NCBI GenBank assembly: GCA_963760795.1
Contig: CAVXEP010000001.1
Coordinates: 64,001 to 128,000 of the forward strand
From: an uncultured delta proteobacterium
GTDB lineage: Bacteria > Desulfobacterota > Binatia > UBA9968
Direction: 5' to 3'
Length of the DNA stretch: 64,000 nt
The notes under the pieces were generated by a model. It was not told the origin of the DNA. It did no database searches and saw nothing but the letters and a program-made list of their open reading frames with translations. The stretch's first letter is position 1, and each line of letters opens with the position of its first letter. This document shows positions 29,063-58,504 of the stretch, in pieces. Position numbers and translations under genes: made by a program.

Positions 29063-29183
29063 TTGAGAGTCCTTCTGAAGCTTGAGCTCAAATCTTAGCA
29101 GAATTTCATTAACTTGAAATGGCGCAGGCAACTGACATATACGGATACGGAAACGTAACCCGTGCGAGTTGCAAGGAGGCCCT

Positions 29184-30260
29184 ATGATAAGTCTGGTTCG
29201 AATCTCGGCCGTCGTCGTCGTTTTGGTCCTGGTGTCATGGTCTAAGGACAGCCGTGCCGCGGAGCGCTCCACCGAGCAGCTCTATGCCACCCTGGCGAAA
29301 CTCCCTGCCGACCAGCGCGAAAAACGCATTGAAGAGGGCGCGCGCAAAGAGGGCAAGCTCAATTTCGTCCACACCTGGCGCGGCAAGAACGCGCGAGATC
29401 ATGTCAAGCTGTTCGAGAAGCGCTATCCCTTCGTGAAAGTCGACATGGGCGACTTGGGTTCGCAAGACGCCGCCGAGCGTTTCATCGCCGAGGAAAGCGC
29501 CGGGCGCCATTTGACCGATATCCTGACGCTCGGCGTTCCCGACATGGCGATAATCCTCAAACATAATTTCGTCGCCAAGTTTCCCACGCCGGCGACCAAG
29601 AAAATTTTAAAGCAGTATCAAAACTTCATCGATCCGGCGGAACGCTGGATTCCCTGGTACTGGGCCGAGCATGGCATTTCTTACAACACCAATTTGATCA
29701 AGCCGGACAAAGCGCCCAAGACTTGGTTCGATCTGTGCAAGCCGGAGTTTAAAGGGCAAGTATCCTTCGATCCGTCGGAGACGCGGTTTCTCGCCGGGCT
29801 GCATGTCATGATGGGCGAGGAGAAAACCAAAGAGTGGCTCAAGTGCATGGGACAGAACCAAATCATTATCCAAACCGGCCACACCCAGCGCATGGAGTTG
29901 ATGCTCACCGGCGACCATGCGGTACAGGGCGACAATTATTTCTACACCGGCGTCGAAGCCAAGCGCAAAGATCCCAAGGCGCCTTTCGCGATGGTACTGA
30001 CGGCGCCGATCCTGTCGTTTGCCGGCGGCATGATCATCAACAAGAACGCTCTGAACCCGTACGCGTCCGCGCTCTTTGTCGACTGGACGCTTTCGACGGA
30101 TAGCCAAAACATGATCAACGAAATTTTGCGCGGCCCACTGACGATCAAGCACCCGTATCTGCCCGATAACGTCAAGCTGGTGACCTATAACGTCGTTAGC
30201 GACGATATTACCAAGCGTTTACATGACGCCTGGGGCCAGTACATCGGCCGCATGAAATAA
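29184..30260 (+). CDS. Fe3+/thiamine-type ABC substrate-binding protein
   Basis: Signal peptide; EGARKEGKL, FEKRYP, YNTNLIKP...PKTW.DL; adjacent permease. Confidence 0.8.
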   Translation: MISLVRISAVVVVLVLVSWSKDSRAAERSTEQLYATLAKLPADQREKRIEEGARKEGKLNFVHTWRGKNARDHVKLFEKRYPFVKVDMGDLGSQDAAERFIAEESAGRHLTDILTLGVPDMAIILKHNFVAKFPTPATKKILKQYQNFIDPAERWIPWYWAEHGISYNTNLIKPDKAPKTWFDLCKPEFKGQVSFDPSETRFLAGLHVMMGEEKTKEWLKCMGQNQIIIQTGHTQRMELMLTGDHAVQGDNYFYTGVEAKRKDPKAPFAMVLTAPILSFAGGMIINKNALNPYASALFVDWTLSTDSQNMINEILRGPLTIKHPYLPDNVKLVTYNVVSDDITKRLHDAWGQYIGRMK

Positions 30261-30278
30261 CCTGCCTCATTTTCTATC

Positions 30279-32027
30279 ATGGCCGCCGTCGATTCACCGC
30301 GCTCGGGAGCCGGCTTCCGTCCGCCTTTGCTGAGCGCCGGCGGCATCGTGCTGCTTGGTCTCAGCGCTATTCTCGTCTACCAAGTTGCGGTTCCGCTGGG
30401 GCTAATCATTTGGACGAGCCTCAAAACCATTCGTCCCGGCGAGGCCGGCTTTTTGGATTTCAGTTTTACTTTGGCCAATTACAGCCGCGCCTACGGCATC
30501 GGCGAGTTTTGGCGGGCGAGTGTCAACACGCTTTACTTCGCTCTGGCCACAACTGTTCTGGCATTTATCTGGGGCACATTTCTCGCCTGGACTGTCGAGC
30601 GCACCAACACGCCGCTGGCGCGGCTGATCGGCCTGGTCACACTCGGCCGGATTATTATTCCAGGTGTGATCATCACGGTCTCGTGGATTTTGATGGCGAG
30701 CCCGAGCATTGGAATTTTGAATCACCTCATCGCTGCGCTGACCGGTGTAAGCAGATTCCTCAACATTTATTCATTCTGGGGCATGGTCTGGGTGCAGGCG
30801 CTGGAAATGACGCCGCTGGCTTATTTGTTAATGTCGGCGGCGCTGCAGTCCATCGACCCGCGGCTCGAGGAAGCATCGGCGATCGCCGGCGGCGGCACTT
30901 GGCCGACCTTTCGCCGGATCACTTTGCCGCTGGTCTTGCCGGCCGCGGCCGCGGCCGCTTTACTGTTGTTTATCCAAACCGTGGAGAGCTTCGAGGTGCC
31001 GCTATTGCTCGGCGGCCGCGCGCGCGTGTCGGTCTACACGACGGAAGTTTACTTCAACACCTCGCGCATGCCGACTGACTGGGGATTATCGAGCACCTAT
31101 TCGATGGTGTTGCTGCTGTTGGCGATGGTATTGCTCTTCGTCTATTTCAGACTGGTGCGCCACGGCGAGCGTTATCAGACCATCACCGGCAAGGACTACC
31201 GGCCGCGACGTGTTGATCTTGGTCGCTGGAAATATCCGGCTTGCGCGCTCAGCTTGCTGCTGATTTTTCTCATCACCGGGTTGCCGTTTCTCACGATGCT
31301 CTACGCGTCGTTCCTGCCGCGGTTTCAAGCGCCGACCGCCGAAGCCTTCCAGGCGATGACATGGATGAACTACGCCAACCTGCTCGCCGACGACGGCTAT
31401 GCCTTGAAACCACTATGGAACAGCACGCTGCTCGGCGTCGGTTCGGCGACCGCGGTGATGCTGCTGGTCGCCGGTATTAGCTATTTCGTGCATAAGACGC
31501 GTATCCGCGGACGGAAAATTCTCGACTTCCTTGGCTTTGCGCCGATCGCGCTGCCGAGCGTCGTGCTCGGCTCGGCGTTCATGTGGCTTTATCTGATCAT
31601 CCCGCTGCCGGTGATTGGCACGCTGAGCATTATTGGCTTGGCTTATCTGACGCGATATTTACCGTTCGCATTGCGCTTCGTCTCGACCGCCATGGTGCAA
31701 ATCCACGCCGAACTCGAAGAGGCGGCGGCGGTCGCCGGCGGCGGGTGGTGGAGAAATTTTTATCACATTTATTTGCCGCTGCTCCGTCCGGGACTCATGG
31801 CCGGATGGTTCTGGGTGATGGTGCACGCTTACCGCGAACTGACGATTTCACTCATGCTCGCGCGCTCGAATAATCGCACCGCCTCGGTGATCATCTTCGA
31901 CCTGTGGTCGAACGGTTCGTTTCAACAGTTGAGCGCCTTCGGCGTCGTCATGTTCACGCTGCTGATCGTGCTGGTGGCCATCGCGCAGAAGATTAGCAGG
32001 CGCTACGGCATACAGGAGCAGGTGTGA
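30279..32027 (+). CDS. FbpB-like ABC permease (duplicated domain)
   Basis: Two EAA loops (LEEASAIAGG, LEEAAAVAGG). Confidence 0.9.
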   Translation: MAAVDSPRSGAGFRPPLLSAGGIVLLGLSAILVYQVAVPLGLIIWTSLKTIRPGEAGFLDFSFTLANYSRAYGIGEFWRASVNTLYFALATTVLAFIWGTFLAWTVERTNTPLARLIGLVTLGRIIIPGVIITVSWILMASPSIGILNHLIAALTGVSRFLNIYSFWGMVWVQALEMTPLAYLLMSAALQSIDPRLEEASAIAGGGTWPTFRRITLPLVLPAAAAAALLLFIQTVESFEVPLLLGGRARVSVYTTEVYFNTSRMPTDWGLSSTYSMVLLLLAMVLLFVYFRLVRHGERYQTITGKDYRPRRVDLGRWKYPACALSLLLIFLITGLPFLTMLYASFLPRFQAPTAEAFQAMTWMNYANLLADDGYALKPLWNSTLLGVGSATAVMLLVAGISYFVHKTRIRGRKILDFLGFAPIALPSVVLGSAFMWLYLIIPLPVIGTLSIIGLAYLTRYLPFALRFVSTAMVQIHAELEEAAAVAGGGWWRNFYHIYLPLLRPGLMAGWFWVMVHAYRELTISLMLARSNNRTASVIIFDLWSNGSFQQLSAFGVVMFTLLIVLVAIAQKISRRYGIQEQV

Positions 32028-32089
32028 GGAATCTGTTTGTCGCTGGTCAAGCTGCAGACCAGCGCTTGGGTTGGCATGCATCGGGAGCC

Positions 32090-32182
32090 GTAGGCTTGGG
32101 TTAAGTAGCGCAGCGACAAGCCCAATGTTTTGAGGGTATCAATCCAAGAACGATGGGTATCGCAAAGCTCAACCCATCCTAC
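32090..32182. repeat. GTAG-type REP element supplying the Rieske gene stop
   Basis: GTAGGCTTGGGTT...AACCCATCCTAC; the CTA at 32179-32181 is the TAG of the minus-strand gene. Confidence 0.65.
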
Positions 32183-33319
32183 GACGGATCAAACCGTTGC
32201 TTCCTGGTCCGAAGCCCTGCAGATAAGTCCGCGTGCAGCAGCCGGTGAAACAGATGCTCGCCCGCTTCGCGACGAACTGATAAACGCCCGGTATTGTAGG
32301 CGCGAGAATTCAAACCGCGCTGCACCGACTGGCAAATAGCCACGTCCTCGGCCTGAATTTGCTCGCTGACGGCGATGCTGGCTAGATTCTTTTCTCGCGC
32401 CGATGCGGAAACGTCGGCGAAGTAGTAGTCGAAGATGACTTCGGTCATGTCGACGCCGCGCGGGATGACCAGATTGGTATCCATCACTTCGTCGTAAATG
32501 TTGATCATGAAATTGGGATAGATCCAGAGATAGTTGGCGCGCTCGCCTTTGCGCACGGCGGCGGTTTTGACTTCGCCCTTTTCGGACGCGATGGGACTCG
32601 ATTGCAGGCAAAAGCGCTCGCCGGTTTCGATCTTGTATTTGCTGTTGTCCAAAACGCTGCTCAGGCCGCCGTGGATATGCGGCACATGGTAGCCGCCGTC
32701 GAGATAGTTGTCGACGAAGACTTTCCAGTTGCAGTTCAAGAAGTAAGCACGGCGCTCGAACCACGAATACTGTTCAAGGTTCAAGGGTTCAAGGCGTTCA
32801 ATCAGATCGGTGCCGACGTAATCCGTCAGGTCGGGATCGCCACTCTCTAGTTTAACGAACACCCAGCCATGCCATTCCGCGGTTTGGACCGGGACGAGGC
32901 CGTTGGCGCTTCGATCGAAGTTGGCAACGCCGGCAAATTCCGGTGTGAGGATCAGCTTGCCTTCTAGGTCGTAGGTCCAGCCGTGATAGGGACAGCGGAG
33001 ATTTTCGGCTTTGCCTTCACATTTTGTCACGACCGCCGCGGCATGGTGGCGGCATACGTTGAAGAAGCCGCGCAGGACGCTGTCGTTGCCTCTGACGACG
33101 AGAATCGCTTCGCCCGCTACATCCGCCGTGATGTATTGCCCTGGATTGCGAACTTGATCGGAGCGACCGGCGAGTTGCCACGACTGCGAAAAAACGGTGC
33201 GCTGTTCCAACTCAAGAATTCGCGGATCGGTATACCAGGCGGAGGGAGGAGTGGATGCTTCCGCTAGCGGAGAGTTGGGATCGTAGCGTTCGATGAGTTC
33301 CGCGTACGGAAGGTCTCAT
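32179..33319 (-). CDS. Rieske non-heme iron oxygenase alpha subunit (choline monooxygenase-like); 5' frameshift
   Basis: NVCRHH, CPYHGW, NWKVFVDNYLDGGYHVPHIH, EDVAICQSVQRG; the open frame extends upstream of 33210 (ASTPPSAWYTDP). Confidence 0.9.
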
Positions 33320-33574
33320 GCTATTGCCCCACGGATAAGTTCAAAAAAATCTGCCGCGGGTCATAAAACGTACCGCATATGCGTCCGATGTATCGCGGCT
33401 TTGTTTGCTGCGTCCACAAGACGACTTCGTGATCGACTTTCTCGCGGTTCAGGTCCAGCCGATCTCGAACCGCAGCGTTTCAGCTTCGATCGCACCGACT
33501 CGGCGAAAACCTTGACGGCGATCAAACGAGCCTCAGGGCGATTCTATTCAATTAGTTAGATCGTTATTATCGTC

Positions 33575-34546
33575 CTAGGCGCTGCTTCCCAATTCCCGCC
33601 GCGCTTGTTCGGCGAAGCTCCAGTTGCGCACTTTGTCGAGCGGGACGGGGTCTTTGCTTTTCAGTTCGAGCATCGACTGATCCACCAGGGATTGCACCGC
33701 GGCGTCGGAGACGACTCCGCCGTCGGACCAACTTCGTTTACCGAGTTCGTAACTTCTAGAAGCGACTTCGCGATCGAGCCGGAGCCAGTTCACCAGCATC
33801 TGGATGGTTTCTTCGCGATTGGCGCTGGCGAAGGCCATGGCGCGGAAGACTGCTCGGATTACGCCGTAAACTTGCTTGGGATTTTTCTGAATCGTCTCGT
33901 CGCGGACGGCGAGACCGGCGAGCGGTAGCTCTAAGCGTTCGCCGAACCAGAGCAGGTCTTTGTAGCCGGCTTTCTCCGCTTGCAGGTTGTACGGCAGAGT
34001 TAAGATCGTCGCGTCGACGCTGCCGGAAATGAGCGCAGCGTAGCGCGCCGCGGCTCCGCCCATTTGCAAACGAATGAGATCGCGGTCGGGGTCCAAACCT
34101 TCTTGTTTGGCGACCGTGCGGAGCGCGAGATCGGCGGCGGCGCCGAAGCTGCCGATGGCGATGCGTTTGCCTTTGAGATCGCGTACGGTTCTCACGTCTC
34201 GCTTGACGGTGAGAAAGTAGTCGGGACGGCCGAGCAAGACGGCTACCGTTTTAACCGGCAAACCGGCGCTGGCGGCGTTTATCGCTGAAGTGCTGGGAGT
34301 GGCGAATTCGACGCTGCGGGTGAGCAATGCGTTGACCGCGATATTGGTGCGCATCGTAATCGTCAATACGTCAAAGCCTTCGTCGCGAAAAAATCCTTTG
34401 CGCGCGGCGATCTCAAGCGGCAAGGTGCTGAGGCCCGCACCGGTGGAGGCGATCTTGATTTCTTCGGCTGCGGCAACGACAGATGGTGAAAGTACCAGGA
34501 CGGAGAAGATTGCGACGAAGAAACGCAATGCGTATGACTTCTTCAT
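33575..34546 (-). CDS. SsuA/THI5(NMT1)-like ABC substrate-binding protein
   Basis: Signal peptide; KGFFRDEG, DLKGKRIAIGSFG, ARYAALISGSVDA. Confidence 0.88.
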   Translation of the reverse strand: MKKSYALRFFVAIFSVLVLSPSVVAAAEEIKIASTGAGLSTLPLEIAARKGFFRDEGFDVLTITMRTNIAVNALLTRSVEFATPSTSAINAASAGLPVKTVAVLLGRPDYFLTVKRDVRTVRDLKGKRIAIGSFGAAADLALRTVAKQEGLDPDRDLIRLQMGGAAARYAALISGSVDATILTLPYNLQAEKAGYKDLLWFGERLELPLAGLAVRDETIQKNPKQVYGVIRAVFRAMAFASANREETIQMLVNWLRLDREVASRSYELGKRSWSDGGVVSDAAVQSLVDQSMLELKSKDPVPLDKVRNWSFAEQARRELGSSA

Positions 34547-43006: not shown

Positions 43007-44311
43007 TCAAACTTCGGTCGGTTTGTCAGCTTTGCTCTCCAACGACGCCAGCGCTTTTTCCATCAATGCGATGCGCCAGCGCCGTTCTTCCTCGGCGGGC
43101 AGCTCCGGCTGGCCGACCGGATAATGAAACTTATTGCCGCCGACGATTCTGCCGACGCCAACTTGCGCGGCGACGTTGGCCAGGCAGGTGATGAGCACCA
43201 CCGGGATTCCTTGTTTCTCAATTTCTTTTGCGATCGTAGCGCCGCTACGCGTGCCGGTGCCTCAGGTCGCGGTCAAGATGACGGCGTTCACACCGGAGTT
43301 CGCCAGTTCCCCGGCGATGCCGGCGCCGAGCTCAGCCATCTTGCTCGGCATCGCGCCGGTGCCGGTGGTGACGAAATAGCGCTCGTGAAGTTTTTTGAAG
43401 CGTTGGTTCTTCTCCAGCTGGCGCATCGCATCCAGCGGCACAATGCGGTCGGGATCTTCATCCACCATCGAGGTGTCGTAGCCAGTATGCATCGCTGCGA
43501 ATTCGCCGCACTTCAAATCGTCCAGCCCGGCCAGCGAATATTTGAAATAACGTGAGCCGCGCGAGCTTTCGAGCCGATCCGGATTACCCTTGGGCACGAG
43601 ACCGCCTTCGGTGACGAGAGCCACCGTGGCGTCTTTCAAGCTGCCGGTTAGATTGGGAATCATGTGCCGCGCGGTTGTGATGAGCGGGATCTCGCTTTCG
43701 TAGGTTTCGCCGTTAAGCTTGGCGAGCATGAGATCGACGGCGCGGACATAATCCGGCTTGGCGGTTCTGACGGTGAAGCGGCGTGGAATCGGCAAGCAAT
43801 GCTCGGCGCGGAAGGCTTCCGCGCCGGCTGGGTCTTGCGCTATTAACAGTTCGACCAGCGCTGAAAAGCGTTTTGCCGCCTCCGCCATGGACGCCGTGGA
43901 GGCGCCGGTTTGCACGACGAATACTTGGCGGCCGATCTCCTGTGTGCCCGGATTGTTTTCATGCATGCCGGTGATTGCCGGAATACGCCAGTTGTCGCGC
44001 ACCCAGCTGCACGCCTTGGCGCAGGCGATACCGTAGCGGCCGGCGTTGAAGGCTGGGCCGGCCAGGAAGAAATCGGGCTGAAACCGGTCGATGGCGGCGC
44101 GCATCGATTGCAGTGCTTGCTCTTCTTGTTCATGAAAGTAGTTGTCGCCGCAGGCCAGCGTTGCATACTCGACGCCGCGCTGCTGGAAACTCCTTTCGAT
44201 TTCAACTCCGATACCGACCGCCTGCGGCAAAAATATAACTTCCTGCCCGGCCTTCTCTTCGCCGCCGATGCCGGCGAAGAACTGATTCAAATAATGGAGC
44301 ACTTTGATCAT
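43007..44311 (-). CDS. Glycine/sarcosine/betaine reductase selenoprotein B-like (GrdB family), Sec350, 434 aa
   Basis: LNQFFAGIGGEEKA, CGDNYF, AGPAFNAGRYG, GGLVPKGNPD; VILTAT-TGA(43262-43264)-GTGTRSGATIAKEIEKQGIPVV continues in frame to 43007. Confidence 0.93.
43235..43249 (-). promoter_or_regulatory. Candidate SECIS hairpin of the GrdB-like gene
   Basis: mRNA CGUAGC-GGC-GCUACG, a perfect 6-bp stem beginning 12 nt after the UGA. Confidence 0.75.
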
Positions 44312-44322
44312 GTCGTTCCTCT

Positions 44323-45612
44323 CTAGTTTTCATAGACCGCGCGAAAGCCGCTCATGCCCATTTTGCTGTAGGAACCGAAGAAAATCGTCGGGTCGAAGAG
44401 AAAAGGTTCACGCGCGTCATGGCGCGCTTTCAAGTGGAGGTCGATCTCAGGCCCGCCGATGACACTTTCCAGTGGTGGAATATAAATCTTCTCCGAAACA
44501 TTACCGCGGCTGATCATGCCATCGGCCTCTGCCGGATGATCGACCAGCGGCCGCTCGTAGCCCTTGGGTCCGTTGGATTCATGCAACACCGCGGCGGTCT
44601 TGATGCCTTCATCTTCGCATGCTTTCACGGTTTGCATGAAATCGACGGTGCCGTTGCCGGTGCCTTCCATGAAAGCCAGCGCGCCGTCGGCGCCCAAATT
44701 TTTTGCCAGCCGCGCCACCCACAGGCCCATTTTCTTTTTCTGCTCGAAGCTGTCGTTATAACCGCGCGAAAGAATCACACCGCGAAAGTTTATGCCCCTG
44801 CCGTGGCGGTTGAGCAATTCCCATATAAACGGATTGTCGCAATGCAGCGACGTCGGCACCTTGCGTTCGCTCTTAAAGTTGCCGCTGACCAGCGCGCCGT
44901 CGAAAAATTCCGCCGGATGGACGAATGTCGGCAGCGTCCGTGAGATTTCTTCGCCATAGTAAAATGTCCGGGCGCAGCGCACTTGGCTTTGTACTTGGTA
45001 GATCAAGACGACTTTGGGCAGACTCGCGTCTGACCGCAGTGAGCGCAATCCTGTGGCGCTGCGGGCGCGGCGTGGTGCTTTTCCGCTTGCGGCAATAAAG
45101 CGCGCGCAGCGCAGCGCCATGAGCCGGAGCGCTTGATCGAAGCCGGCATTGGAGACCGACGCATCGGCAGTTAGCGATAGCACCAGATGAAAACAATCCG
45201 AGCCGTAGGAGTATGGGGCGCCGACGCCGGTCATGTCGAGAATCCCCTCGCGCTGTTTCTCGATGGGAGTCAATTCGTCGAAATGAGGGAAGCGGCCGGC
45301 GACGGTGATGAGCAGGTTGCGAATTCGCACTGTCTGTCCCGTTCCCACGAGAGCTGCGGGACCGTCGAATCCCGGAAAAGTCGAGCCGCCACCGGAGAGT
45401 TTGGCGATCGGCAGGACCGTGTCGAGCACATGGACGATGCGCTTGGCTTCGCCGGGACGAGCGAGTTCGAAATCAACCCCGATGCCGTGACTAAGGTCGT
45501 CGATTTGCTTTTCAAGCTCGGCCCGGCAGAGCGAGAGGGCGGCGCCGTCAAGCCGCGTGCGCTCGCCCCATCCGAGATCTCCGATTGAATAATCGAGCAG
45601 TTCCAGTTCCAT
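44323..45612 (-). CDS. Glycine/sarcosine/betaine reductase component B partner subunit (GrdE/GrdI family)
   Basis: MELEL start; ELARPGE, REGILDMTG.GA.YS, LPKVVLIYQVQSQ, HPAEFFDGALVSGN, LGADGA, EG.GN; ends 11 nt upstream of the GrdB-like gene. Confidence 0.88.
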   Translation of the reverse strand: MELELLDYSIGDLGWGERTRLDGAALSLCRAELEKQIDDLSHGIGVDFELARPGEAKRIVHVLDTVLPIAKLSGGGSTFPGFDGPAALVGTGQTVRIRNLLITVAGRFPHFDELTPIEKQREGILDMTGVGAPYSYGSDCFHLVLSLTADASVSNAGFDQALRLMALRCARFIAASGKAPRRARSATGLRSLRSDASLPKVVLIYQVQSQVRCARTFYYGEEISRTLPTFVHPAEFFDGALVSGNFKSERKVPTSLHCDNPFIWELLNRHGRGINFRGVILSRGYNDSFEQKKKMGLWVARLAKNLGADGALAFMEGTGNGTVDFMQTVKACEDEGIKTAAVLHESNGPKGYERPLVDHPAEADGMISRGNVSEKIYIPPLESVIGGPEIDLHLKARHDAREPFLFDPTIFFGSYSKMGMSGFRAVYEN

Positions 45613-45725
45613 CGCGCGATCCTTTCGACAAACGGAACGCTCGATGTTTATCGCGGCAGCAAGCTTGGTGTCAATGCAGTTCGAATCACTCCGATGCGGG
45701 TGCCGCAATGCCAGCAGGGTATTTC

Positions 45726-47054
45726 TTAAAATCGCGCGTCGACCCATTTCGCCACGTAGTCGAAAAAGTTTTTCACCGAATTGGAATATTGCCCCTTGGT
45801 TTTCTCGCACTCCGTGCATGGCGTGATGCCGTGGGTGGCGCCTTCGATGGTGATGAAGTCCTTATCCTTGCTCCTGGCGACCTCGTAGTGGATCTCATTG
45901 TCGCGGATAAAGTAATGGCCGCCCATGGCGCCGAAGAGGACCGGCACGGAAATCTGTTGCAGGGCGCAGACGGTGGAGTTGTTGCTCGAGCAATGGTCGA
46001 TGCCGTCGAGCGAATTGGTCGCGCGCACGGCATTGGCGCTCAAGAACGAGCGCACGGTGAGAAACAGCGTGCCGCCGTCGAAGGTAGAGTTCTGCTTGGC
46101 AATATCGGGCACGGCTACGCGCACACTGTCGAGCATGCAGCAATCGTCGATACTGCCGTCGTTTTTGAGCAGCCGGCGCGGCGCGCTGGTGCTGCGCAGA
46201 ATGCTCAGGTCGAGCTGAAAGAGTTTGGCGGCGTCACCGCGGGGCACGATGAACGGCGCGTCGTCTTTCGGGTTTGCACTCGCTTCGATGCGGCGGAGTT
46301 TTTCCACTGCCAAGTCGATCAGCCGGTTCATGCGCTTGGCCTGTCCCTCGAAGTAGGTTTTTTTGAACGCCTCAGAATAGTGCGATGGACCGTTGGGGTT
46401 GTAGCCGTTCTTGGCATCGAAGGGGTCCAACTTCGGGTCGATCTTGGGCGCTTTGTTTTCGTTGATCATCGCGGCGTCGTTGATGACCGCGGGATTTAGA
46501 TTTCTCACCCCGGCGATGACCGGATTGCCTGGGTGGGCATCGCGAAAAATAATCCCGTCCGCCGGCGGCAATCCGGCGAGCTCGTTGCCGCACTTCAAAA
46601 TTCGCTGCGGCGCCTGGCAGTAGGCGACGCCGTTTTCGGCGACGGCTTGATAAAAACTCATGGTCGGCCCGCCGCCGCTGCCGCCGAGCAGCAAGACTTT
46701 GGCGATGCCGGCTTGCTTGCGCAGGAAGTTGACGCCGGATTTCACATCGAGAGCGATCTGGTCCCACTTCACCATGGCTTCGTTGTTGTCCGAGCGCGGA
46801 TTTAAGCACAGCACCATGTAGCCGCGCTTGGCGAGTTCAGTGCATGCAAGACTGCCCATAACGTTGCCAGTGCGATGCACGACCAAGATGCCCACCCGGG
46901 CGGCCGGCAATGGCGGATCGGGTTTGTACAGCGCGCCTTTTACCGCGGGTGGCGCGAACTGGATGTAGGTCGGATTACTTTGCGCGTGGGCGCGCTGAAC
47001 GGCGACAGACGCGATGAGTGTGAAAAAAATCATTTGAAACCGGCGCATGTTCAC
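45726..47054 (-). CDS. Secreted alpha/beta-hydrolase-fold protein
   Basis: Signal peptide ending AHA; GGSGGG nucleophile elbow; IEGATHG C-terminal His. Confidence 0.75.
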   Translation of the reverse strand: MNMRRFQMIFFTLIASVAVQRAHAQSNPTYIQFAPPAVKGALYKPDPPLPAARVGILVVHRTGNVMGSLACTELAKRGYMVLCLNPRSDNNEAMVKWDQIALDVKSGVNFLRKQAGIAKVLLLGGSGGGPTMSFYQAVAENGVAYCQAPQRILKCGNELAGLPPADGIIFRDAHPGNPVIAGVRNLNPAVINDAAMINENKAPKIDPKLDPFDAKNGYNPNGPSHYSEAFKKTYFEGQAKRMNRLIDLAVEKLRRIEASANPKDDAPFIVPRGDAAKLFQLDLSILRSTSAPRRLLKNDGSIDDCCMLDSVRVAVPDIAKQNSTFDGGTLFLTVRSFLSANAVRATNSLDGIDHCSSNNSTVCALQQISVPVLFGAMGGHYFIRDNEIHYEVARSKDKDFITIEGATHGITPCTECEKTKGQYSNSVKNFFDYVAKWVDARF

Positions 47055-47336: not shown

Positions 47337-48821
47337 TTACTGCTCCGGCGATGCCGGGAAAATCAAAGACTTGATGACCACCGGCACGGCGCCGGAGGAT
47401 TGAATGAGCGCGCCGACATCGATGAAGTCGAAGTCGCTAAGCGCAATGCCGTCGATGGAGATGATCGCGCTGTCCAACTTCAGCTCTTCCTGGCAGTGCA
47501 GGCCGATGATGCCGCCGATGTCGCCGTCGTTGACCAAAACCAGCGGATGGCCTTTGGCGAGAATGTCTTTGAGACCTTCGGCCACGCCGCTGCAAAACGC
47601 TTGCAGCCGCGCGAAGGTCGCTGAGCCTTCCCAATGAAATGCTACGGCGACCGGCTGGCGGCCGTGCAGCATATCGAGGCGCCGCAGCGCGCTGAGCAAT
47701 CCGTCGCGCACGGCATCCTTGGTGAATTCTTCCTGACCCAGCGGGAACTCGGGCGCAACCACGGCGATGTTGCGCACCGGCACGGCGTCGTCAGGCATGA
47801 TGAAGATGGTGTTGCCGCTCACTTGCACGGTGTATTGAGACGCGCCGATGACGGTGGCGCGGATGCGCGCGTTGGGTTCCATCATCAGCAGGCCCAAGTT
47901 GCCGGCGCGTTTGTGCACTTCCTCGGCGATCAGCGGCCCCAGGTCGCCAAAGCTGGTCTTGGCGCGACTGTAAATAAATTCCGAGACGCCGCCGGAAAAC
48001 ATCACGCAATCGATCTCGCCGGTGTAGCTTAGCGGCGGCATGCGCAACAAGCTCTTGAAACCGTCGTCGATGGCCGATGGTTTCAACATGGCGAACAGCT
48101 TGTCGACCATGCCGGAGACCATTTTGCGTAAATTCTCTTCGGGAATTTTCTCGCCCATGGCCACCGAGAAGCCGGCCCAGCCAGCATGCTTGCGGGCGGC
48201 TTCTTCGATGCGCACGATGACACCGTCTTTGTCGAAGGCGAGCAGGCGGGCGCCGATGTCGATGGCCGATACTTCCTGGACTTTACCGTTGTTGCAGATC
48301 GCGAACTTGCTGGTGCCGCCGCCGATGTCGATGTTCAAAACTACGCCACCCATTTTCGCCGAGTGGGCTACCGCGCCCGAACCATGGGCAGCCATGGTCG
48401 CCTCAAGGCCGTCGCCGGCGCTGACCGCGACGAACTTACCGGCTTCCTGGGCGAACAGCTCGCCGATGGCGCGGGCATTGCGCCGACGCACGGCAACGCC
48501 GGTGAGGATCAATGCGCCGGTGTCGACCTGTTCGCGGCTAATTTTCGCGATCTTATATTGGTCGTTGATGAACTTGCCCAATGCTTCGACATCGATTCTC
48601 GTGTCATCGACGTAGGGCGTCAGGAGGATTTGCGATTCATTTATAACCTCGCGCTTGGTCACCCGGTAGCGCGACCCTTCGAGGGTCAGTTCGAGGCGAG
48701 AGAAAACCAGATGGGAGGTCGACGATCCAATGTCGACGCCGACGCTGGTGAGCCGTAGGTTTTCTTCATCCTGCATGTGGCGGTTGGCATTGGAAAACGA
48801 ACCTCTAGGTGCGGTGGCCAT
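47337..48821 (-). CDS. EutA-like reactivating factor (ASKHA ATPase)
   Basis: SVGVDIGSSTSHLVFSRL, GALILTG, LNIDIGGGT, FSGGVSE, IRATVIGASQYT, VPVVIKSLIF. Confidence 0.9.
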   Translation of the reverse strand: MATAPRGSFSNANRHMQDEENLRLTSVGVDIGSSTSHLVFSRLELTLEGSRYRVTKREVINESQILLTPYVDDTRIDVEALGKFINDQYKIAKISREQVDTGALILTGVAVRRRNARAIGELFAQEAGKFVAVSAGDGLEATMAAHGSGAVAHSAKMGGVVLNIDIGGGTSKFAICNNGKVQEVSAIDIGARLLAFDKDGVIVRIEEAARKHAGWAGFSVAMGEKIPEENLRKMVSGMVDKLFAMLKPSAIDDGFKSLLRMPPLSYTGEIDCVMFSGGVSEFIYSRAKTSFGDLGPLIAEEVHKRAGNLGLLMMEPNARIRATVIGASQYTVQVSGNTIFIMPDDAVPVRNIAVVAPEFPLGQEEFTKDAVRDGLLSALRRLDMLHGRQPVAVAFHWEGSATFARLQAFCSGVAEGLKDILAKGHPLVLVNDGDIGGIIGLHCQEELKLDSAIISIDGIALSDFDFIDVGALIQSSGAVPVVIKSLIFPASPEQ

Positions 48822-48917
48822 GGAAATCCTTACGGGTTTAAATTGGTTCGGCGTCGAGAGTCTAGAGTCTGGCGTCAAGCCAAACCCTAGACCCCAGGCG
48901 CTGGATGCGAGACGAAT

Positions 48918-50114
48918 TTAGTAAGAGTTCTTGTAAAGATCGGGTTCCATGCGCGATTTGGCGCCGACCTTTTCGAGGGTTTCCTCGAATTCTTTACGCA
49001 GGTACGGATCTTCTTCGTTGTACGGGATCGCGGTGCCGCCGTCTTTCAAGTCGATGGCGCCGTAGTCGATGCCCTTTTCGCCGGGCTTGCCGCGATCGCG
49101 CCCAGGCGCGTTGGGACCGAACCAGGCCGTGAGACGCAGCGGCTCTTTGCTGGCGCCAAAGTGAGCGTGGAACCAATTGCCGCTCATCGGCGCGGCGCTG
49201 ACCATGCCCACCGGTTCATAGTCCTGTCGTCTAATTTTTTCCGTCGTGCCTTTTTCCCAGGGGTGCATGCCTAATTCTGACGGCCAGGTGTAGGTATATC
49301 CTTTGCCGCTGAGGCAAATTAGCACGGCGGCGGAGCCATGCGCATGCGCCTTCGAGTAACGGCCGGTTTCATGCTGGCCGATCCACATGTAGAATTGCTG
49401 GCCAGCCATGTGCGGCTCGATACGCCGGTAACCCGGCGAGCGCCGGTTATCCATCGGCAATTCGCAGGACATCACGTCGGGAATGATGTTGGTCTGGCGC
49501 ATGGCGAGACCGCGCAGCGGATCGGGTGTCACTTCTTCTTTGTACTTGTAATAATCGTCGCTCGGATCGAAACGATCTTTGAAGTGATAGGGGCAATTGA
49601 AAATAAAATCGTCGTTGCCGAAATTATTCATAACGTTCGGCGCCGTGGTGCCGCCCAATAAGAGCGCCGGGCTGGAAGTCGCGTTAACAATTCGGTGGGT
49701 CGCGTTCATTGGAATGGCAAACATCGAACCTTTTTGCCACTCGAAGGTGATCTTCTTCGGATTGCCGTCGATCCACACTTCCGTGGTGCCGCGGCCGTCG
49801 ACGACGAGGTATTGTTCTTCGTACAAATGCTTTTCGGGATTCAACGCGCCGGCGCCGGGAACCTCAACAACGTAGCAGCCCCACAAACCTTCGGTGCCCA
49901 GTAGCTGAATAAAGGTGCCGTTGCCGCCCATGCGTTTCCACGGCTTGCGCGGCAAATCCTGTACGCGGCGCACGCCGATGTCACGATAGATCGGAATACC
50001 CTGCGACTCCATGTAGTTGTCGTAAGGCGTGTTTGGCCGGAGAAATTTTCCATAGCCTGCCCGGGTCTTATTATCCGTCGGTTCCTGAAATGCTTGCTCA
50101 GCGGGATGATCCAT
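48918..50114 (-). CDS. Bicupin protein
   Basis: Two cupin modules (EKHLYEE...PMNATH; KAHAH...WFHAH); GGAGG RBS. Confidence 0.85.
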   Translation of the reverse strand: MDHPAEQAFQEPTDNKTRAGYGKFLRPNTPYDNYMESQGIPIYRDIGVRRVQDLPRKPWKRMGGNGTFIQLLGTEGLWGCYVVEVPGAGALNPEKHLYEEQYLVVDGRGTTEVWIDGNPKKITFEWQKGSMFAIPMNATHRIVNATSSPALLLGGTTAPNVMNNFGNDDFIFNCPYHFKDRFDPSDDYYKYKEEVTPDPLRGLAMRQTNIIPDVMSCELPMDNRRSPGYRRIEPHMAGQQFYMWIGQHETGRYSKAHAHGSAAVLICLSGKGYTYTWPSELGMHPWEKGTTEKIRRQDYEPVGMVSAAPMSGNWFHAHFGASKEPLRLTAWFGPNAPGRDRGKPGEKGIDYGAIDLKDGGTAIPYNEEDPYLRKEFEETLEKVGAKSRMEPDLYKNSY

Positions 50115-51817: not shown

Positions 51818-54800
51818 TTAGAACAGCGTCAATTCTTCATTGGCTTGCGTGCCGACATCAATCGATTCGCCCAGGCGCAGAAAGATTAATTTAAACGCCG
51901 CCACTTGGCGCCCGAGGCCTTTTCGTGCCGCCTCGATATAAATCTCCGCCTGCTGGCGATAGCGCTCGGCGCCGATGCGTAATTCATTTCGTTTAATTCT
52001 ATCTGTCTTATAGTCGGCCAGGTAAAGCAAGCCGTTTTTCTCGTAGATGAGATCGATGACACCTTCCATGATCTGATCCGTTCCATGGCATGAGTGAGCG
52101 GCACTTCGCGGCCGAGGATCTTGGCGCCGGCGAGTTCGCCGTAGACTTTTGAGCGGAAATAATTATCCAAAATTTCGTGCAGCTCGGTTTCGATCTCAGC
52201 GCGGTGTGAAACGAATTCCGCCGGCAGAGCGCCGTCGATGAAAGCTGCGCAATTGCTCATCGAGATTCGCTGTCTCACCGCCGAACTGCCAGGTCTGCAA
52301 AAATCGGTGCGTCAGATCGCCGACCACCAGCGCCGGGGTCTTTCGCGGTGGTTGGATGGTCAGTCTATCGCCGGCTTCGGTGCTCGCTTCTTCCTGGCGC
52401 TTGAGCAGGGTCGGCGTGAGAAATGGCGTGGTCTGTTGCGCCTTTTCATAGATCGCCGTCCGGCGCGCCCAATCGTCGACATAGGGTTTCCAGTTGGGCT
52501 TTTTTTTGGAGCGTTTGGCTTTGGCCGGCGCGTGGCTGGGGGCGCTGAGACTCTGATTGACGACTTCGATCTCGACCATACCTTTGCCGAGGGCGACCCG
52601 GGTTGAGGATTCGGCGCCGGCGATGCTGTCGCCCAGCGTTGTGTCGAGCATGGCCTGAAAGCTGCCGCTGGAACGCCGGCCGCTCGGTGCGCAGGAGATG
52701 ACTAGATGTTCTCGCGCTCTCGTCATGGCGACGTAGAGCAGCCGTTTTTGTTCTTCGGCATTTCTCAAGCGGTTTTTCTCGGCGATGTAGAGGCCGGCGA
52801 GATCGGCGATCTGGCCGATGCGCGTGCCGGTGAGTCCGGTGGACCAATCGAAGGTCGACTCGGCTTCGGCGCTATGGCGTCCTTCGGTGCCGGTCTGGCA
52901 GCCGGCCAGGATGACGATGGGGAACTCCAAGCCTTTGGCCTTATGGATGCTCATGATGCGCACGGCGTCGAGGTTTTCTTCGGCGAGCACGCTTTCGCCT
53001 TCGTCCTTGACGTCGAGGACGCGCTGTTCGAGCTGGCGGATCGCTTGTTTGAGCGTGGTCAATCCCTCGCGGCCGAGCTGTTCGGCTTGCTGGCGCAGCT
53101 TGGCTAAGTTGGCCACCGCCTGCTCGCCGTGGAAATGGCAGGCGGCGAGCAGCTCCACCGGCAGAGTGGAAAATACCCGATCGACGGCGGCGCCGATGGG
53201 CAGGGTTCTGGTTTCCTCGTTGAGCCTGGCCAGCGCCTGATAGAGTTGAGCGAGCGTTGCTGGAAACTCTTCGACGTCGAGTTTGGCGGCGTCGCGATAG
53301 TCGAGCCGGTTTTGCCGGTGCAGCTGGTAAATCTGCAAGTCGGTGAGCCCGCCCAAGGGCGAACGCAGCACGCCGACTAGGGCCAAGCGGTCGTAGGGGT
53401 TCTCCACCGCGCGCAGCAGATTGACCGCGTCGATGATTTCTTTGGCGGCGTAGAAATGGCGCTCGCCTTCGACCACGTAGCGAATGCCCTGGCGGCGTAA
53501 CGGTTCCAAATAGTCGTGGATGTCGGTCAGCTTGCGCATCAGAGATGGCGACGTCTTTCGGCTGGGCGTAGACGGTCTCGCCGCGCGGGTTGAGAATCTG
53601 CGCTTTACCCAACACAGACTCTTTCAACCAGCGCGCCAAGCTCTCGCCTTCGATGCGCCGGGCGGTTTCGGCATCGGTCTGATCGTCAGGCGGCGATGAT
53701 TTTTCTGACCGAGAGTTTCGCCAGCGGGCCTGAGAGGCTCGCGCGGCCGGGCGCGGGCTGGATAGCGATATAGGGCGGCTGTAACGCCTCTCGGGTTTGG
53801 ATCAATTGTTCAAAGGCGCCGTTGACGACGTCGAGGATGGCGCCGTCGCTGCGGAAGTTAGTCGTTAGCCGGCACTCGATGCCGTCTTGTGCCAAGATGA
53901 TTTTTTCTACCACTTCCAAATAGGCCTCGATGTCGGCGCGGCGGAAAGCATAGATCGATTGTTTCGGGTCGCCGACCACGAATAGTTTGCCGGGTTCCAA
54001 TCTAACTTTGCGCCACTCCGACACGCTCTGATTGGCCTGTTCGGCCAAATAGAGAAGAATCTCGTACTGGATCGGGTCGGTGTCCTGAAACTCGTCGATC
54101 AAGATCGTCCGGTAGCGGCGTTTGAGTTCGGCGCGCACCCGCTTGTGGTCGCGCATCAGGTTGCGGGCGCGAACTAACAAGCCGTCGAATGAGATATGGC
54201 CGTCGCGCAGGAAGCGCTCGCGAAAGGCGCTGGCGTAGGGAACGAGCAATCGCCAGAGCAATGCGGTGAACTCGCCGTCGACGCCGGCCAGGCCTTTGGC
54301 GGCGCGGACTAGCTTTTGCGCCGCAGCGATATCTTCCGCAGACCAGCCATTGAGGTCGCGGCTGACCGATTTTTCCGCCAGGAGCGCGTAGCACTCGGCC
54401 AAGTCCGCCGAGCGCCGGCCGGATTTTTCAAACTCGTAGATCACCGCGTGGGCGGCGCGCACGAGTTTTTCATTCATCCGGTCTTCCCGATAGCGCGCGT
54501 CCAAGGCCGCGGCTTGCGCGGCTAATTTGCCGAGCCAAGCGCGCAGCGGCGCGGCGATTTCGTTGGTATTCGTTGGATCTTGGTCGAGGTTCACGGTTTC
54601 CGCTGCCAGCGATATAGCGAGAGCTTTGATTTGATCGAGCTGGCAGCGCGCGAGCACTTTGCGCCATTCGTCGGCGTGGGGGCTGCCTAAGGCCAGTTCT
54701 TGATCGAGCCAGGCGTCCCATTGCTCGTCGAATAGCCGATCGAATTGCGTGCCGTCGTCTTCGCGAAATTGCGGATCAACACCGGCTTCGATGGGATAGA

Positions 54801-55245
54801 GGCGCAGCAAATTGGCGGCGAAGCTATGGATCGTGCCGATGTCGCTGCGTTCTAAATTTCGCAGTGCCTCACGGATGCGCGAGTCCATTTCATCCTTGGA
54901 AAGTTGGTAGAGCGCGATGATGTCTTCGACAGCGTGGAAAGTTTTCTTGTCTACCTCGCCGGCGGGTTGGCGGTCGAGCTCGACGGCTAAGTAGGCCTGC
55001 AAGAGTTCGCGCAACCGCAACTTCATTTCATCGGCGGCTTTGTTGGTAAAGGTCAAGGCGACGATCTCGGTGACCTTGAGCGGTTGGGGATTGCGCAAGA
55101 TCAAGTGCGCCAGCCGGTCCACCAGCAAGGTTGTTTTGCCGGTGCCGGCGCCGGCCGTGACCACCAGATTTCGGTCGAAGGTGCCCACCGCTACTTGGCG
55201 ATCGCGGGCGTCGGGCAGTGCGATGTTTTCCGTCGCTGGGCTCAT
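51818..55245 (-). CDS. AddA-like UvrD helicase/nuclease (several frameshifts)
   Basis: AGAGTGKT, TIHSF, DEFQDT, VGDPKQSIYAFR, IHKAKGLEF, LYVAMTRAR, GVIDL...DYKTD. Confidence 0.88.
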
Positions 55246-58200
55246 AGTTTCTTCGGATCTTTGGCGCGCAAAGCGTAATGCGCGTCGGTCAGTGGATCGT
55301 TCTCGGCGCGCCACAAGCTCGGTGGATGATTCTTGCGGCAGATAGTGGCGAAATCGCAGCGGCCGCAGTACTCGCCGCGGTGGATGAAGTACCGACCCTG
55401 GCGCACGCCATTCGCTAGATACTCGATGGTCTCTTTGGTGGCGGCGCCGAGGTTGCCGCTCAAACCGTCGCGATCGTAGGGCGCTGTAACCAGCGGGCCG
55501 TCGGGCCAGCGCTGAGCGATGTAATAAAAATCCGCTTCGATGGCCGGGGCGGGCTTGCCGTCCTGGCGTTCGGACCACGCCTGGGCTAACAAATAATAGA
55601 AAGGCGGCTGCAAGCGCTCGCCGCGCAGGGCGGCGCGCACAAGGTTTTTGTCTTGAGTCGCCGGTGCGGCGCCAAACTTGAATTTGTAGTCGATGACCCG
55701 CAGCGCGTTGCCGTCGCGCTCGTTGCCCAAGTTACGATCAATGCGGTCCATGCGGCCACGAATAGTCAGGCCCTTCAAACTATCGGGCCAGTCATCCGGC
55801 AAGCTTCGCGCCATGTCGGTTTCCAGACTCACCGGGGCGAAACCCGAGCTCGAAAGTTCATTGAGATCCTCGTCGGTCACCTGGCGCAGCAATTGAATTA
55901 AACCCTCTTTCAACGTTTCCCAGGCCAACGGATAGCCCACCGGATTGTTCGCCTCGTAGTCGGCGAAAGCCTGGTTCGCGATCGCCGACAGCGTGTTTTC
56001 TATATTCATTGCTGGCGTGTTGCCGGTAAAATAGCCGCCCTCCATCAACGCGGCATAAAAGCTGTTGAGAATTTCATGGCCCAACTCACCGAACTCGGCG
56101 GCATTGGGACCGAGGATTTCTTCGGGTCGTTCGAGCGGCTGTAAGCCAAGCACATGACGGGCAAAAAATTGGAACGGGCAACGCGCGTAGGTTTCCAACG
56201 CCGTCGGTGATAAGCCGCGCTCGGCGAAACGTTTCCAGTGAGCGGCGAGTTCGCCGACCAACCCATCGTAGGCCAACAAGCGATCGCCGGAGCGATCGAG
56301 TCTCGCTGACGATCTTGCGTCCCTCCCGGTAGAGCGCCGGCAGATTGCCGGTGGCTTCGATCAACGAGGTTGGATCTTGGTTCTGCAAGGTTAGCCGCAC
56401 AGCGAGCTCGCCCGGCAACAGCAAGTCTTGGCGGTCGAAGGGCGCCGTAGTGGCTTTTTCGATCAGGCTGCGCGGGATGGTGACGATTTCACACTCAACT
56501 CCTTGGCTGACTTGGGCTTGCTTCAGTTCTTCGACATACCACGACGGCGCCAGCGCCCGGCCATTGTCGTCGGCGCGTTGGTACGAGCAGTAGAACCGCT
56601 CGCGGCCGGCGCCGACGAGGAGGGTGAACAGCAGTTTCTCTTCGTCGTAGCCGGTGAGTTTCCGGTTGACCTTGTAGCCCAGGTCGGTTTCCAAGACTTC
56701 GCGGTCGCGGTCGCGCAGAAAGGCGTCCTCGCGGATGGTGCGCGGGAACACGCCTTCGTTCATGCCGAGAACGAACAAAGCCCGGAAGCAAAGGCCGCGG
56801 GCAGCGGTGGCGCCGAGCACCATGACGCCGTCGCGGTTGCGCCGGTCTTCGGTCACCGTGGTGCGTTCGAGCCAGTGCTCGAAGGTATGGCTGAAATCGT
56901 CGAGGCTGACGTTGTCATGGATTTTATCGAGACCGCCGAGCTGGTCCAGGACTTCCAGAATTGCATTATTCACCGACGCTTCGCCTGTTCCAGCCTCGTC
57001 TATGGACGAGATGCCCAGATATTTTTCCAGCAAAGCCTTCCATCTCGTGCTGAAGTCCTGCCAAGTCGCTTGGTTGGGCAGTGCGGCGAGATCGGCAATC
57101 AGCGCATCGACGACATCGGCGAGGGAGAGCAACTGCGCCGCGGCAATGCGGATCACCCGCGCTTCGTCGTCGTCGGAAATTTGCCGCAGTAACAAATCGC
57201 GCTGGGTGAAACGGCGCAGCCGGCGCCATTCGCTAACGCCTTGACAAATCGCCAGCTCGCGGGTCGCCAAGTCCCAGAGATCCGGGCGCGCGTGAGCGGG
57301 GTCAGCGGCGAGTTTGTAAAGCTGAAAATAGGGCGACGACAGCAAGTCGATCACTTGGCTGCGCAAGAAGTCTTTGGCCGGCAGACTTGAGCAGCAGGAT
57401 GACCGCCTTGGTCAGCGGAAACAGCACCAGCGGTTCTTCAAGGCGGCCGGCAAGTGGGATGCGATGTTGGGCAAAGCCGTCGCGAATGACCCTGCCGTAG
57501 GACGTCCAAACCGCGCACCACCACGCCGATCTCATGAAATGCCAACTGACCAACCTCGACCAGCCGCAGGATTTCTTTTGCCGTCGTTGCGACTTCGTCC
57601 TGGATGCCGAAGGTATTGACGATTGTGCAGTGCCACTTTTTGTTGGCTTTCGCATAGCTTCTGCTCTTGTCGCCGTCAAACAGGCGGGCGCCGGTGGGCA
57701 GAGTGCTGTTCGATTCCGCATCACCCACTGAATCACTTGTGTGTCCTTGGACGTAGCGCTCGTAAAAGCGTGCGGCGAACGTCCAGGCGTCATGGCTCGG
57801 TTTGGCGGGGAGCAGCGGAAAGAACAACTTGGTCGGATAGTTGCCTGCCACCGCCAGAAAAAAATCCAGTTGAATCTGCGTCAAATCGTAAAAGCCGTAG
57901 TAAAAAATCTCGGTGAACTGTTGGAGAAACGGCGACGCCGGCGCCTGTTCGGTGGCGCGGCGATCGAGATCGGAAAGATCTCGAATCCCCTGATCGTCAC
58001 AGAAATGGCGCAAGGTTTGCAGACAACGCCAGCAGCTGCGCCGTGCGCTCGCTGGCGGGCTGGCTGAAATGTCCCTCGCTGAGCGCCACCAGCGCCAGCG
58101 CCGGATCGACCAGACCGTCGCGCAGATCGCGCAGGGTCTGCCAAAGTGCGGCACAGCCGCCGGCGCGATCTTCGATGCCGGCAAAGGGCTCGGCGCCGGG

Positions 58201-58504
58201 TTGGCCGGTGCGGATGATCTGACGCAACGCTTCTTCGTGGAAGAGATCGCTATGCAATTCCGTCGGCACGCTGCCGGATTCGACATTCAGCCGTAACGAC
58301 AACTGGTGAAACGTCAGCAACTGCACGTTGAGCAGCGCCAAGCCCCGCTCGCGGCTCAAGAGTATTTTCAGTCGACGGCGGAGGAAATCGGACGGCACCA
58401 GGATTAACAGCGGGCAGAGCAGGTCGGTAGTCTTTATGTCTGGCAATCGCTTCGACGAGAGCATTTTCAAGATCGGGATGAAATGGACCGAGGACGGTTT
58501 GCAT
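55242..58504 (-). CDS. AddB-like inactive helicase with PD-(D/E)xK nuclease (several frameshifts)
   Basis: LVPS, YGFYDLT, GMNEGVFP, CPFQFF, GRMDRID, IDYK, C..C.....C Fe-S staple. Confidence 0.85.

Follow-up and report, generated by a model that had tools for sequence, protein, structure and literature searches.

The window analyzed here, a stretch of 64,000 nucleotides (nt) from an uncultured delta proteobacterium of the Binatia (assembly GCA_963760795.1, contig CAVXEP010000001.1), carries on its minus strand two adjacent genes for a GrdE-like subunit and a GrdB-like selenoprotein, which pair we interpret, at a probability of roughly 0.6, as a "protein B" of the glycine-reductase type of selenoenzyme that would work without a pyruvoyl group, on a specific substrate of its own, and would be coupled to the selenoprotein A (GrdA). 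The reductases of the glycine type are textbook selenoenzymes of the anaerobic amino-acid fermenters and, to our knowledge, only four specificities—glycine, sarcosine, betaine, and fluoroacetate—have been linked to genes in addition to that for proline. The product of the GrdE-like gene is predicted to be the alpha subunit of a Grd-type protein B and to remain unprocessed: a phenylalanine, Phe246, occupies the column in which GrdE and GrdG bear the cysteine that becomes the pyruvoyl group, and a subunit that stays one uncleaved chain without pyruvoyl is the prediction that the sequences support well. The features concerned are the following, all of them given in the positions of the window.

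44323..45612, minus strand: gene of the GrdE-like subunit, 429 amino acids (aa), with the ATG at 45612 and the stop codon at 44323-44325
44875..44877, minus strand: TTT codon of Phe246, aligned with the Cys242 from which GrdE/GrdG form their pyruvoyl group
44839..44841, minus strand: codon of Cys258, a clade-specific conserved Cys 12 residues past Phe246
43007..44311, minus strand: gene of the GrdB-like selenoprotein, 434 aa plus stop, beginning 11 nt past the stop codon of the GrdE-like gene
43262..43264, minus strand: conserved in-frame TGA read as selenocysteine (Sec; U350), beyond which the frame runs on
43235..43249, minus strand: hairpin CGUAGC-GGC-GCUACG, 12 nt after the UGA, resembling a selenocysteine insertion sequence (SECIS)

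The cleavage column and its conservation

The open reading frame (ORF) of the GrdE-like gene, which in its upstream-extended form reaches 45819, gives a translation with the N-terminus MELELLDYSIGDL; the homologues, mostly 428 aa long and covering 100% of the query, begin at the MxLEL position. The protein belongs to the Pfam family PF09338 (Gly_reductase), with 306.4 bits vs. a cut-off of 22.2 (E 3.1e-91) and with residues 1-389 aligned to the profile positions 1-385 of 426, and it falls below the NCBIfam cut-offs both for GrdG (NF040793; 196.8 bits vs. 780) and for FarE (NF053623; 100 bits vs. 675). The members of its cluster bear generic names only, and the label "glycine/sarcosine/betaine reductase" on these proteins is not to be taken as a substrate assignment.

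The reference sequences were drawn from a plasmid collection: GrdG/GrdF from the annotated genes of Peptoclostridium acidaminophilum; GrdI/GrdH from Enterococcus gilvus (pCR1A), where the GrdI reference is the subunit adjoining an annotated grdH and a betaine/carnitine/choline (BCCT) transporter, along with a second GrdI, the Acetoanaerobium noterae counterpart, which is 76% identical to the one from E. gilvus; GrdE/GrdB from A. noterae, where the GrdB downstream of the GrdE reference fits the published glycine-specific regular expression (regex); and PrdA/PrdB from the annotated genes of Ligilactobacillus salivarius. The GrdE-like translation contains DGALVSGNFKSERKVPT, in which Phe246 stands in the cleavage column when aligned to these references, and the Phe codon that the preliminary description of this DNA had read at 44875-44877 in place of that of the pyruvoyl-forming Cys was confirmed as TTT on the minus strand. 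That description had also stated that GrdE and GrdG have a Cys following SGN, and both of the fetched references do carry Cys242 within "SGNC," the GrdG of P. acidaminophilum reading DGAITSGNCVAPCDK and the GrdE of A. noterae DGAILSGNCVSACDK. The alignment to GrdE, GrdG, GrdI, and PrdA, which had been proposed as a check, places Phe246 in one column with their Cys or, for GrdI, Phe: the PrdA of L. salivarius, which reads DGGVHALTCIGP, has its Cys ("ALTC") there, and GrdI, which reads DGAMISGSFMPCSSK, has Phe, in agreement with the earlier statement that the betaine-specific GrdI is unprocessed and with PMC10838667, where GrdI is no proprotein.

The peptide bearing the pyruvoyl group in the C. 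difficile GrdE spans aa242-266, according to PMC9908766. The GrdE-like protein lacks not only the Cys at the cleavage column that marks the GrdE and GrdG proproteins but also the second processing Cys at +4 ("SGNCxxxC"), since it reads SGNFKSERK vs. SGNCVAPC in GrdG and SGNCVSAC in GrdE. Both processing cysteines are likewise missing from FarE and from GrdI, neither of which is a proprotein, and FarB has no CxxC, according to PMC10838667. Together with the facts on the family, the uncleaved subunit that had been proposed from the window thus retains good support in the sequence, and the substrate class that had been attached to it—a quaternary amine, a sulfonium, or a non-amine, unable to form a Schiff base—is one that we infer.

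Within the clade alignment, comprising the 120 top-ranked homologues from the database (identity to the query 74-100%), the cleavage column holds Tyr in 91, Phe in 29, and Cys in none; and because the closest homologues thus carry Tyr or Phe in 120/120, Phe246 is no sequencing error. The second family Cys at +4 is missing from these homologues as well, the motif SGN[YF]K.ERK is kept in every one, and SGN, K247, T254, and Cys258 are invariant or almost so. The wider alignment, of 136 rows, consists of the query and 135 full-length 50%-identity representatives among the best 150; it samples the family in the order of similarity to the query and does not amount to a census. The residues at its cleavage column are Tyr (68), Phe (20), Cys (8), Leu (8), His (6), Asn (6), Trp (3), and others (17), which means a column without Cys in 128/136 rows and an aromatic one in 97/136, the betaine-specific GrdI being likewise aromatic. 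A column without Cys is the usual state in the nearest relatives of the query and no peculiar loss.

The clade is widespread in soils and its radiation is abundant in soil metagenomes, the similarity search having listed 438 matches at E <= 0.001 among 8000 candidates scored. The matches in sequencing runs are contigs, which indicate presence only. One independent soil-metagenome contig (run X1, record 7, 44799-45022) keeps the TTT, its sole differences from the window being at 44851, 44992, and 45010, though run X1 may be the sample behind the window assembly. The RNA-library run X15 has contigs across 44356-45683 with 4 to 16 differences each, which contigs are at most a weak hint at the transcription of a relative.

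Position within the Gly_reductase family

In an exhaustive search of the 50%-identity representatives the query clade stands out as discrete, with the query's own representative at 76% identity and the next at 41%. FastTree, with 132 rows, placed the query beside P0122 and then P0123 (support 97). IQ-TREE, with 45 rows under LG+G4, PrdA as the outgroup, and the Shimodaira-Hasegawa-like approximate likelihood-ratio test (SH-aLRT), placed it along with all four intact paralogues from its own genome within a clade of 35 rows (SH-aLRT 100), none of which has a Cys at the cleavage column (35/35); the rows of the GrdE/GrdG type, all with Cys, formed a separate group (93), and GrdI another (98) outside the query's 35-row clade. 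A loss of the column Cys is indistinguishable from a gain, since the root is uncertain with PrdA as a long branch. The identity of the GrdE-like protein to GrdI is 33% and to GrdE/GrdG 32%, and its local identity to PrdA 24%. From the tree set of 122 representatives we scored 114, eight being omitted for a size limit, and none of those 114 reaches the GrdG or the FarE cut-off, the best score being 631 bits for GrdG vs. 780; FarE was accordingly not placed in the trees. Among 201 sampled genomes of the window's phylum, 10 have a match at E <= 1e-20, the own genome counted, and no orthologue is present, the best match outside the own genome being 37% identical.

The selenoprotein partner

The GrdB-like partner matches PF07355 (E 8.1e-108) and lies above the cut-off of TIGR01918 (various_sel_PB; 371 bits vs. 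65.45) and below the curated cut-offs of GrdB (331/602 bits), GrdF (378/800), and GrdH (NF040795; 360.5/775). Neither the GrdB nor the GrdF regex of PMC9751293 fits it, only the N-terminal part that they share doing so, and its specificity blocks read MHTGYDT and TTGTGA; as controls, the GrdF of P. acidaminophilum fits the GrdF regex and the GrdB of A. noterae the GrdB regex.

The reading frame stays conserved for 84 codons beyond the TGA, and the TGA together with the Sec motif is identical in the window and in 23/23 of the related loci that reach that part. The motif of the partner, ILTATUGTGTRSGATI, compares with ILTSTUGTCTRCGATM in GrdF, GrdH, and GrdB and with MTAGUGTCHR in PrdB, so that both cysteines of the U-x-x-C-x-x-C motif are missing and the Ser of "STU"—to which PMC10838667 assigns a possible role as a second carbonyl site—is replaced with Ala. 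Two other cysteines of the partner, Cys172 and Cys376, are conserved. The six pairs of the candidate SECIS hairpin are invariant in 22/22 distinct sequences, five synonymous sites included, and the three codons just upstream vary in their third positions, which is the pattern to be expected of a bacterial SECIS; no covariation is obtainable for the hairpin, because nothing in it varies.

Structural model

The AlphaFold2 model of the GrdE-like protein, built from the 136-row alignment, has a mean predicted local distance difference test score (pLDDT) of 95.2 and a predicted template-modeling (pTM) score of 0.94; in this model Asn245 is the last residue of the strand 241-245, and the loop that follows (246-253) begins with Phe246. 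The sequence search of the PDB produced no relative of the protein, the lone row at E 0.69 being spurious, and Foldseek found nothing in the PDB for the model (best TM about 0.2). The three-layer alpha/beta matches to residues about 194-427 (VIA-align wide) were generic, at Z <= 7.6 and within the noise of the tool, so that we assigned no fold.

The Grd complement of the genome

The own genome (G000; 6.58 Mb, 89% complete) was compared with five other genomes holding the clade. Its nine Gly_reductase matches represent seven genes, of which two are apparently frameshifted, and its five GrdB-like genes all have the TGA and none a full CxxC. GrdA is encoded by a single-copy gene at C13:157087-157515 (172 bits) with one in-frame TGA (CFV-TGA-TAAGAM), which gene is adjoined by grdC (NF040746; 537 bits vs. 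450); in the other five genomes, with 10, 5, 7, 5, and 27 Gly_reductase matches, a Sec-containing GrdA and an adjoining GrdC above the cut-off are present in 5/5. That 6/6 genomes hold GrdA-GrdC along with 5-27 Gly_reductase matches fits an arrangement of many B modules feeding one A/C core. The pair itself is located on contig C1 and is not adjacent to the grdA and grdC of C13. The textbook Grd system needs GrdD as well; GrdD (NF040747) was not found in the own genome, where the best score was 24.5 bits vs. 350, and was above that cut-off in 0/6 genomes, the best matches reaching 22-28 bits.

The two frameshifted paralogues, with two frames each (C7:96546-97725 and C4:156798-157977), are either pseudogenes or the product of assembly indels. 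The gene of SelD in the same genome (C11:1948-2862, minus strand) has an in-frame TGA, so that SelD is itself likely a selenoprotein. The genome with the 27 matches (G205, that of locus L062; 8.3 Mb, labelled Deltaproteobacteria) has two grdA genes, one of them in an E-C-A arrangement at C130:63392-66630.

Gene neighborhood

Upstream of the pair, two more genes recur in related loci:

47337..48878, minus strand: gene of a EutA-like ATPase of the ASKHA (acetate and sugar kinases, Hsc70, actin) type, PF06277 at 1.1e-114
48918..50114, minus strand: gene of a cupin-domain protein of 398 aa, Cupin_2 at 1.2e-8

We compared 29 related loci, most of them from assemblies that carry the label Candidatus Binatia, delta proteobacterium, or Deltaproteobacteria; Verrucomicrobiia, Acidobacteriota, Chloroflexota, and Thermodesulfobacteriota are the labels of assemblies that contribute a single locus each. 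The E and B genes adjoin each other in 25/29, the remaining four (L055, L058, L064, and L066) stopping at a contig edge. The most recurrent neighbor is the cupin gene, in 7/29 loci—in three at 95-99% and in four at 37-38% identity—and the sequence search of the PDB gave no relative of the 398-aa protein. The EutA-like gene, which reaches 327 bits with the EutA models vs. a cut-off of 598, lies near the pair, jointly with the cupin gene, only in the three closest loci, and no ethanolamine ammonia-lyase genes occur near it; its product is probably no true EutA and could be an accessory or activating factor, the association with the pair being weak. The four loci with the 37-38% identical cupin (L056, L059, L060, and L063) have a radical S-adenosylmethionine (SAM) gene upstream, on the opposite strand; L056 and L060 also have an ATP-binding cassette (ABC) transporter, and L041 and L042 a transporter of the major facilitator superfamily and an M24 creatinase-like peptidase, to which L041 adds a class IV aminotransferase. 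The NCBIfam matches for the neighbors of the pair are all far below their cut-offs, and the neighborhoods yield no substrate.

A number of further observations concern the surroundings. The radical SAM genes with a B12-binding domain (L059:8155-9996, L056:5713-7389, and L060:8227-9996, on the minus strand of each locus) stand directly upstream of E-B pairs in loci that are 62-66% identical, the radical SAM gene of L063 being likewise placed; these genes are reminiscent of farC, the radical SAM gene of the far operon. In the window, an ORF of 442 aa (45726-47054, minus strand) between the EutA-like and the GrdE-like genes has a signal-peptide-like N-terminus, a GGSGGG motif, no Pfam or NCBIfam match, and no counterpart in the 29 loci, the corresponding gap in L038 measuring about 730 bases; its appearance is that of a local insertion. 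Within the region 29169-34546, a Rieske oxygenase gene (32179-33210, minus strand), whose best match is a far sub-threshold one to the glycine betaine monooxygenase GbcA (127 bits vs. 670), adjoins the genes of an SsuA-like binding protein and a PhnS2/PhnU2-like ABC transporter, and weak homologues of those binding proteins and permease occur near the pair in some distant loci (e.g., L056 and L060). The helicase-nuclease-like region 52196-58470, on the minus strand, consists of overlapping ORFs that switch frame (52196-53539, 53686-55578, 55242-56279, 56086-57366, 57438-58286, and 57997-58470), which arrangement suggests frameshifts or assembly indels.

Proposed mechanism

We propose that the GrdE-like subunit, which almost certainly stays uncleaved and pyruvoyl-free, as do GrdI and FarE, would form a complex with the GrdB-like selenoprotein whose gene begins 11 nt downstream. 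The substrate would be an alpha-substituted carboxylate whose substituent already leaves well, most plausibly, by analogy, an onium group (quaternary ammonium or sulfonium) and possibly a halide or another non-amine, and would be bound without activation as a Schiff base. The Phe or Tyr at the former pyruvoyl position would line the leaving-group pocket, and an aromatic residue in that column, in common with the betaine-specific GrdI, would suit a pocket whose leaving group is charged or in some other way self-sufficient. Sec350 of the partner would then attack the alpha carbon to form a selenoether; and, since the partner has no Cys beside its Sec, the intermediate must go to another protein, the likeliest recipient being the single GrdA of the genome, with GrdC following. 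The pair would accordingly be but one of probably several substrate-specific modules that pass a selenoether to GrdA/GrdC.

Several circumstances weigh against this proposal. The separation of the pair from grdA/grdC means that a coupling to GrdA is deduced from co-occurrence in only six genomes; with GrdD not found in those six, the downstream chemistry may differ; and the neighborhoods differ across the clade and name no substrate. Furthermore, PMC9908766 describes it as debated what part the pyruvoyl group of GrdE plays in the binding of the substrate, which debate weakens the argument from the missing pyruvoyl to a substrate that forms no Schiff base. Finally, there is a small chance that processing or redox chemistry takes place elsewhere in the subunit, for example at Cys258, given the clade-specific conservation of that residue (119/120).

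Alternative explanations

We consider it unlikely that the pair is a Far-like reductive dehalogenase or another non-amine C-X reductase acting on haloacetate or something similar. The double loss—of the processing cysteines in the E subunit and of the CxxC in the B—is the one attributed to FarE/FarB in PMC10838667; but the GrdE-like protein scores 100 bits vs. 675 with the FarE model, below even the 197 that it obtains with GrdG, no fluoride exporter or radical SAM gene is present among the ORFs listed for 30000-64000, and the clade is as widespread in soils as the 438 matches cited above indicate.

Equally doubtful, in our estimation, is that the pair acts without GrdA/GrdC in the manner of PrdA/PrdB, with another reductant resolving the selenoether. 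The location of the pair apart from grdA/grdC, the failure to find GrdD in the six genomes, and the variation of the neighbors between sub-clades would all be compatible with that arrangement, for which a thiol could come from conserved cysteines, namely the partner's Cys172 and Cys376 and the GrdE-like subunit's Cys258. PrdB, however, has a Cys three residues past its Sec (UGTC), where the partner has none, and 6/6 genomes keep a Sec-containing GrdA beside GrdC in the company of 5-27 Gly_reductase matches.

That the pair is the betaine reductase GrdI/GrdH, with glycine betaine as substrate, we hold to be improbable. The cleavage column, aromatic and without Cys, contains the same Phe as does GrdI, the partner reaches 360 bits on the GrdH model, and a Rieske oxygenase gene, the best sub-threshold match of which is GbcA, lies 11 kb away. 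Yet the GrdE-like protein, at 33% identity, is no nearer to GrdI than to GrdE/GrdG (32%), and GrdI groups in a clade apart (98), to which the query's 35-row radiation (100) does not belong; the GrdH score is far under the cut-off of 775 and is exceeded by the 378 bits for GrdF; GrdH retains the CxxC and the "STU" that are missing from the partner; and the pair is not flanked by a BCCT transporter gene or by grdA, grdC, grdD, or trx, in contrast to the E. gilvus locus.

An even slimmer prospect is that the subunit still undergoes processing, or bears a cofactor of the carbonyl or redox type, at a residue other than Phe246, for which role Cys258 would be the best candidate. Cys258 is situated 12 residues beyond the former cleavage site and is present in 119/120 clade members, whereas the wider alignment has mainly Gln (77 of 136) and Leu (19) in that column, with Cys in 14. 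In the model, however, Cys258 ends a short helix (254-258) and is thus off the strand-end position at which the family is cleaved, and we found no precedent; as to the serines, Ser248 is poorly conserved among the 120 homologues (S109, T6, I3, C1, A1), and Ser243 is conserved family-wide in the 136 rows, even in the enzymes that cleave at Cys.

It is scarcely credible that the Phe stems from an error in sequencing or that the gene is a decaying pseudogene, as the two paralogues of the same assembly that look frameshifted might lead one to suspect: against this stand the intact frame of 429 aa, the SGN[YF]K.ERK motif in 120/120 homologues, the independent contig with TTT, and the confident structure model.

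Significance

The principle of a pyruvoyl-free subunit is already in print, with GrdI and FarE; the clade, its combined losses, the GrdD-less core, and the expansion of paralogues in the Binatia were not found in the literature searched, in which no paper combined "Binatia" and "glycine reductase." The pyruvoyl-free design prevails among the nearest relatives of the query, whose radiation is multiplied inside single Binatia genomes. An identification of the substrates could uncover new ways in which quaternary amines, sulfonium compounds, or halogenated acids are turned over in soil and would offer a clean test of the roles of the pyruvoyl group and the CxxC in the classical enzymes. As a tentative extension, to which we would give distinctly less credence than to the interpretation of the pair itself, the Binatia and other soil bacteria might possess a modular pyruvoyl-independent system, in which many divergent E/B modules, each with a different alpha-substituted carboxylate as substrate (e.g., onium osmolytes and halo- or other C-X compounds), would serve one GrdD-less GrdA-GrdC core, thus bringing Sec chemistry of the Stickland type beyond the strict anaerobes. 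The present clade would supply one of these modules, in which the aromatic residue at the former pyruvoyl position would contribute to a cation-pi pocket. If true, that chemistry would reach oxygen-exposed soils and substrates new to the enzyme class.

Comparison with known systems

With GrdE/GrdB and GrdG/GrdF the pair shares the combination of PF09338 and PF07355/TIGR01918, the gene order E then B, the position of the Sec, and the hairpin behind it, but Cys242 and Cys246 are theirs only, their specificity regexes remain unmatched, and the identity is 32%. PrdA/PrdB are distant homologues, at 24% local identity, with the same logic in the column (PrdA "ALTC," PrdB "GUGTC"), though PrdB keeps a resolving Cys; for PrdA, PMC11229817 gives cleavage at the Cys and the maturase PrdH as requirements.

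FarE/FarB of Cloacibacillus porcorum MFA1 resemble the pair in an E subunit without the two processing cysteines and a B subunit without the CxxC, as PMC10838667 describes them, and differ in organism and habitat as well as in the FarE model score of 100 vs. 675 bits, FarE being known here by description and profile. A radical SAM gene and a transporter are part of the far operon itself, according to the same paper, whereas no radical SAM gene is among the ORFs listed for 30000-64000 of the window.

The E. gilvus GrdI/GrdH locus comprises trxB, trx, grdA, grdC, grdD, and the BCCT transporter, whereas the pair here stands alone; GrdH reads "STUGTCTRC" vs. "ATUGTGTRS" in the partner; and the two E-type subunits, 33% identical, belong to separate clades. 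Nevertheless, GrdI/GrdH and the pair have the same design in common: a subunit of the Gly_reductase fold with a Phe in place of the cleavage Cys, alongside a Sec-bearing partner of the GrdB family.

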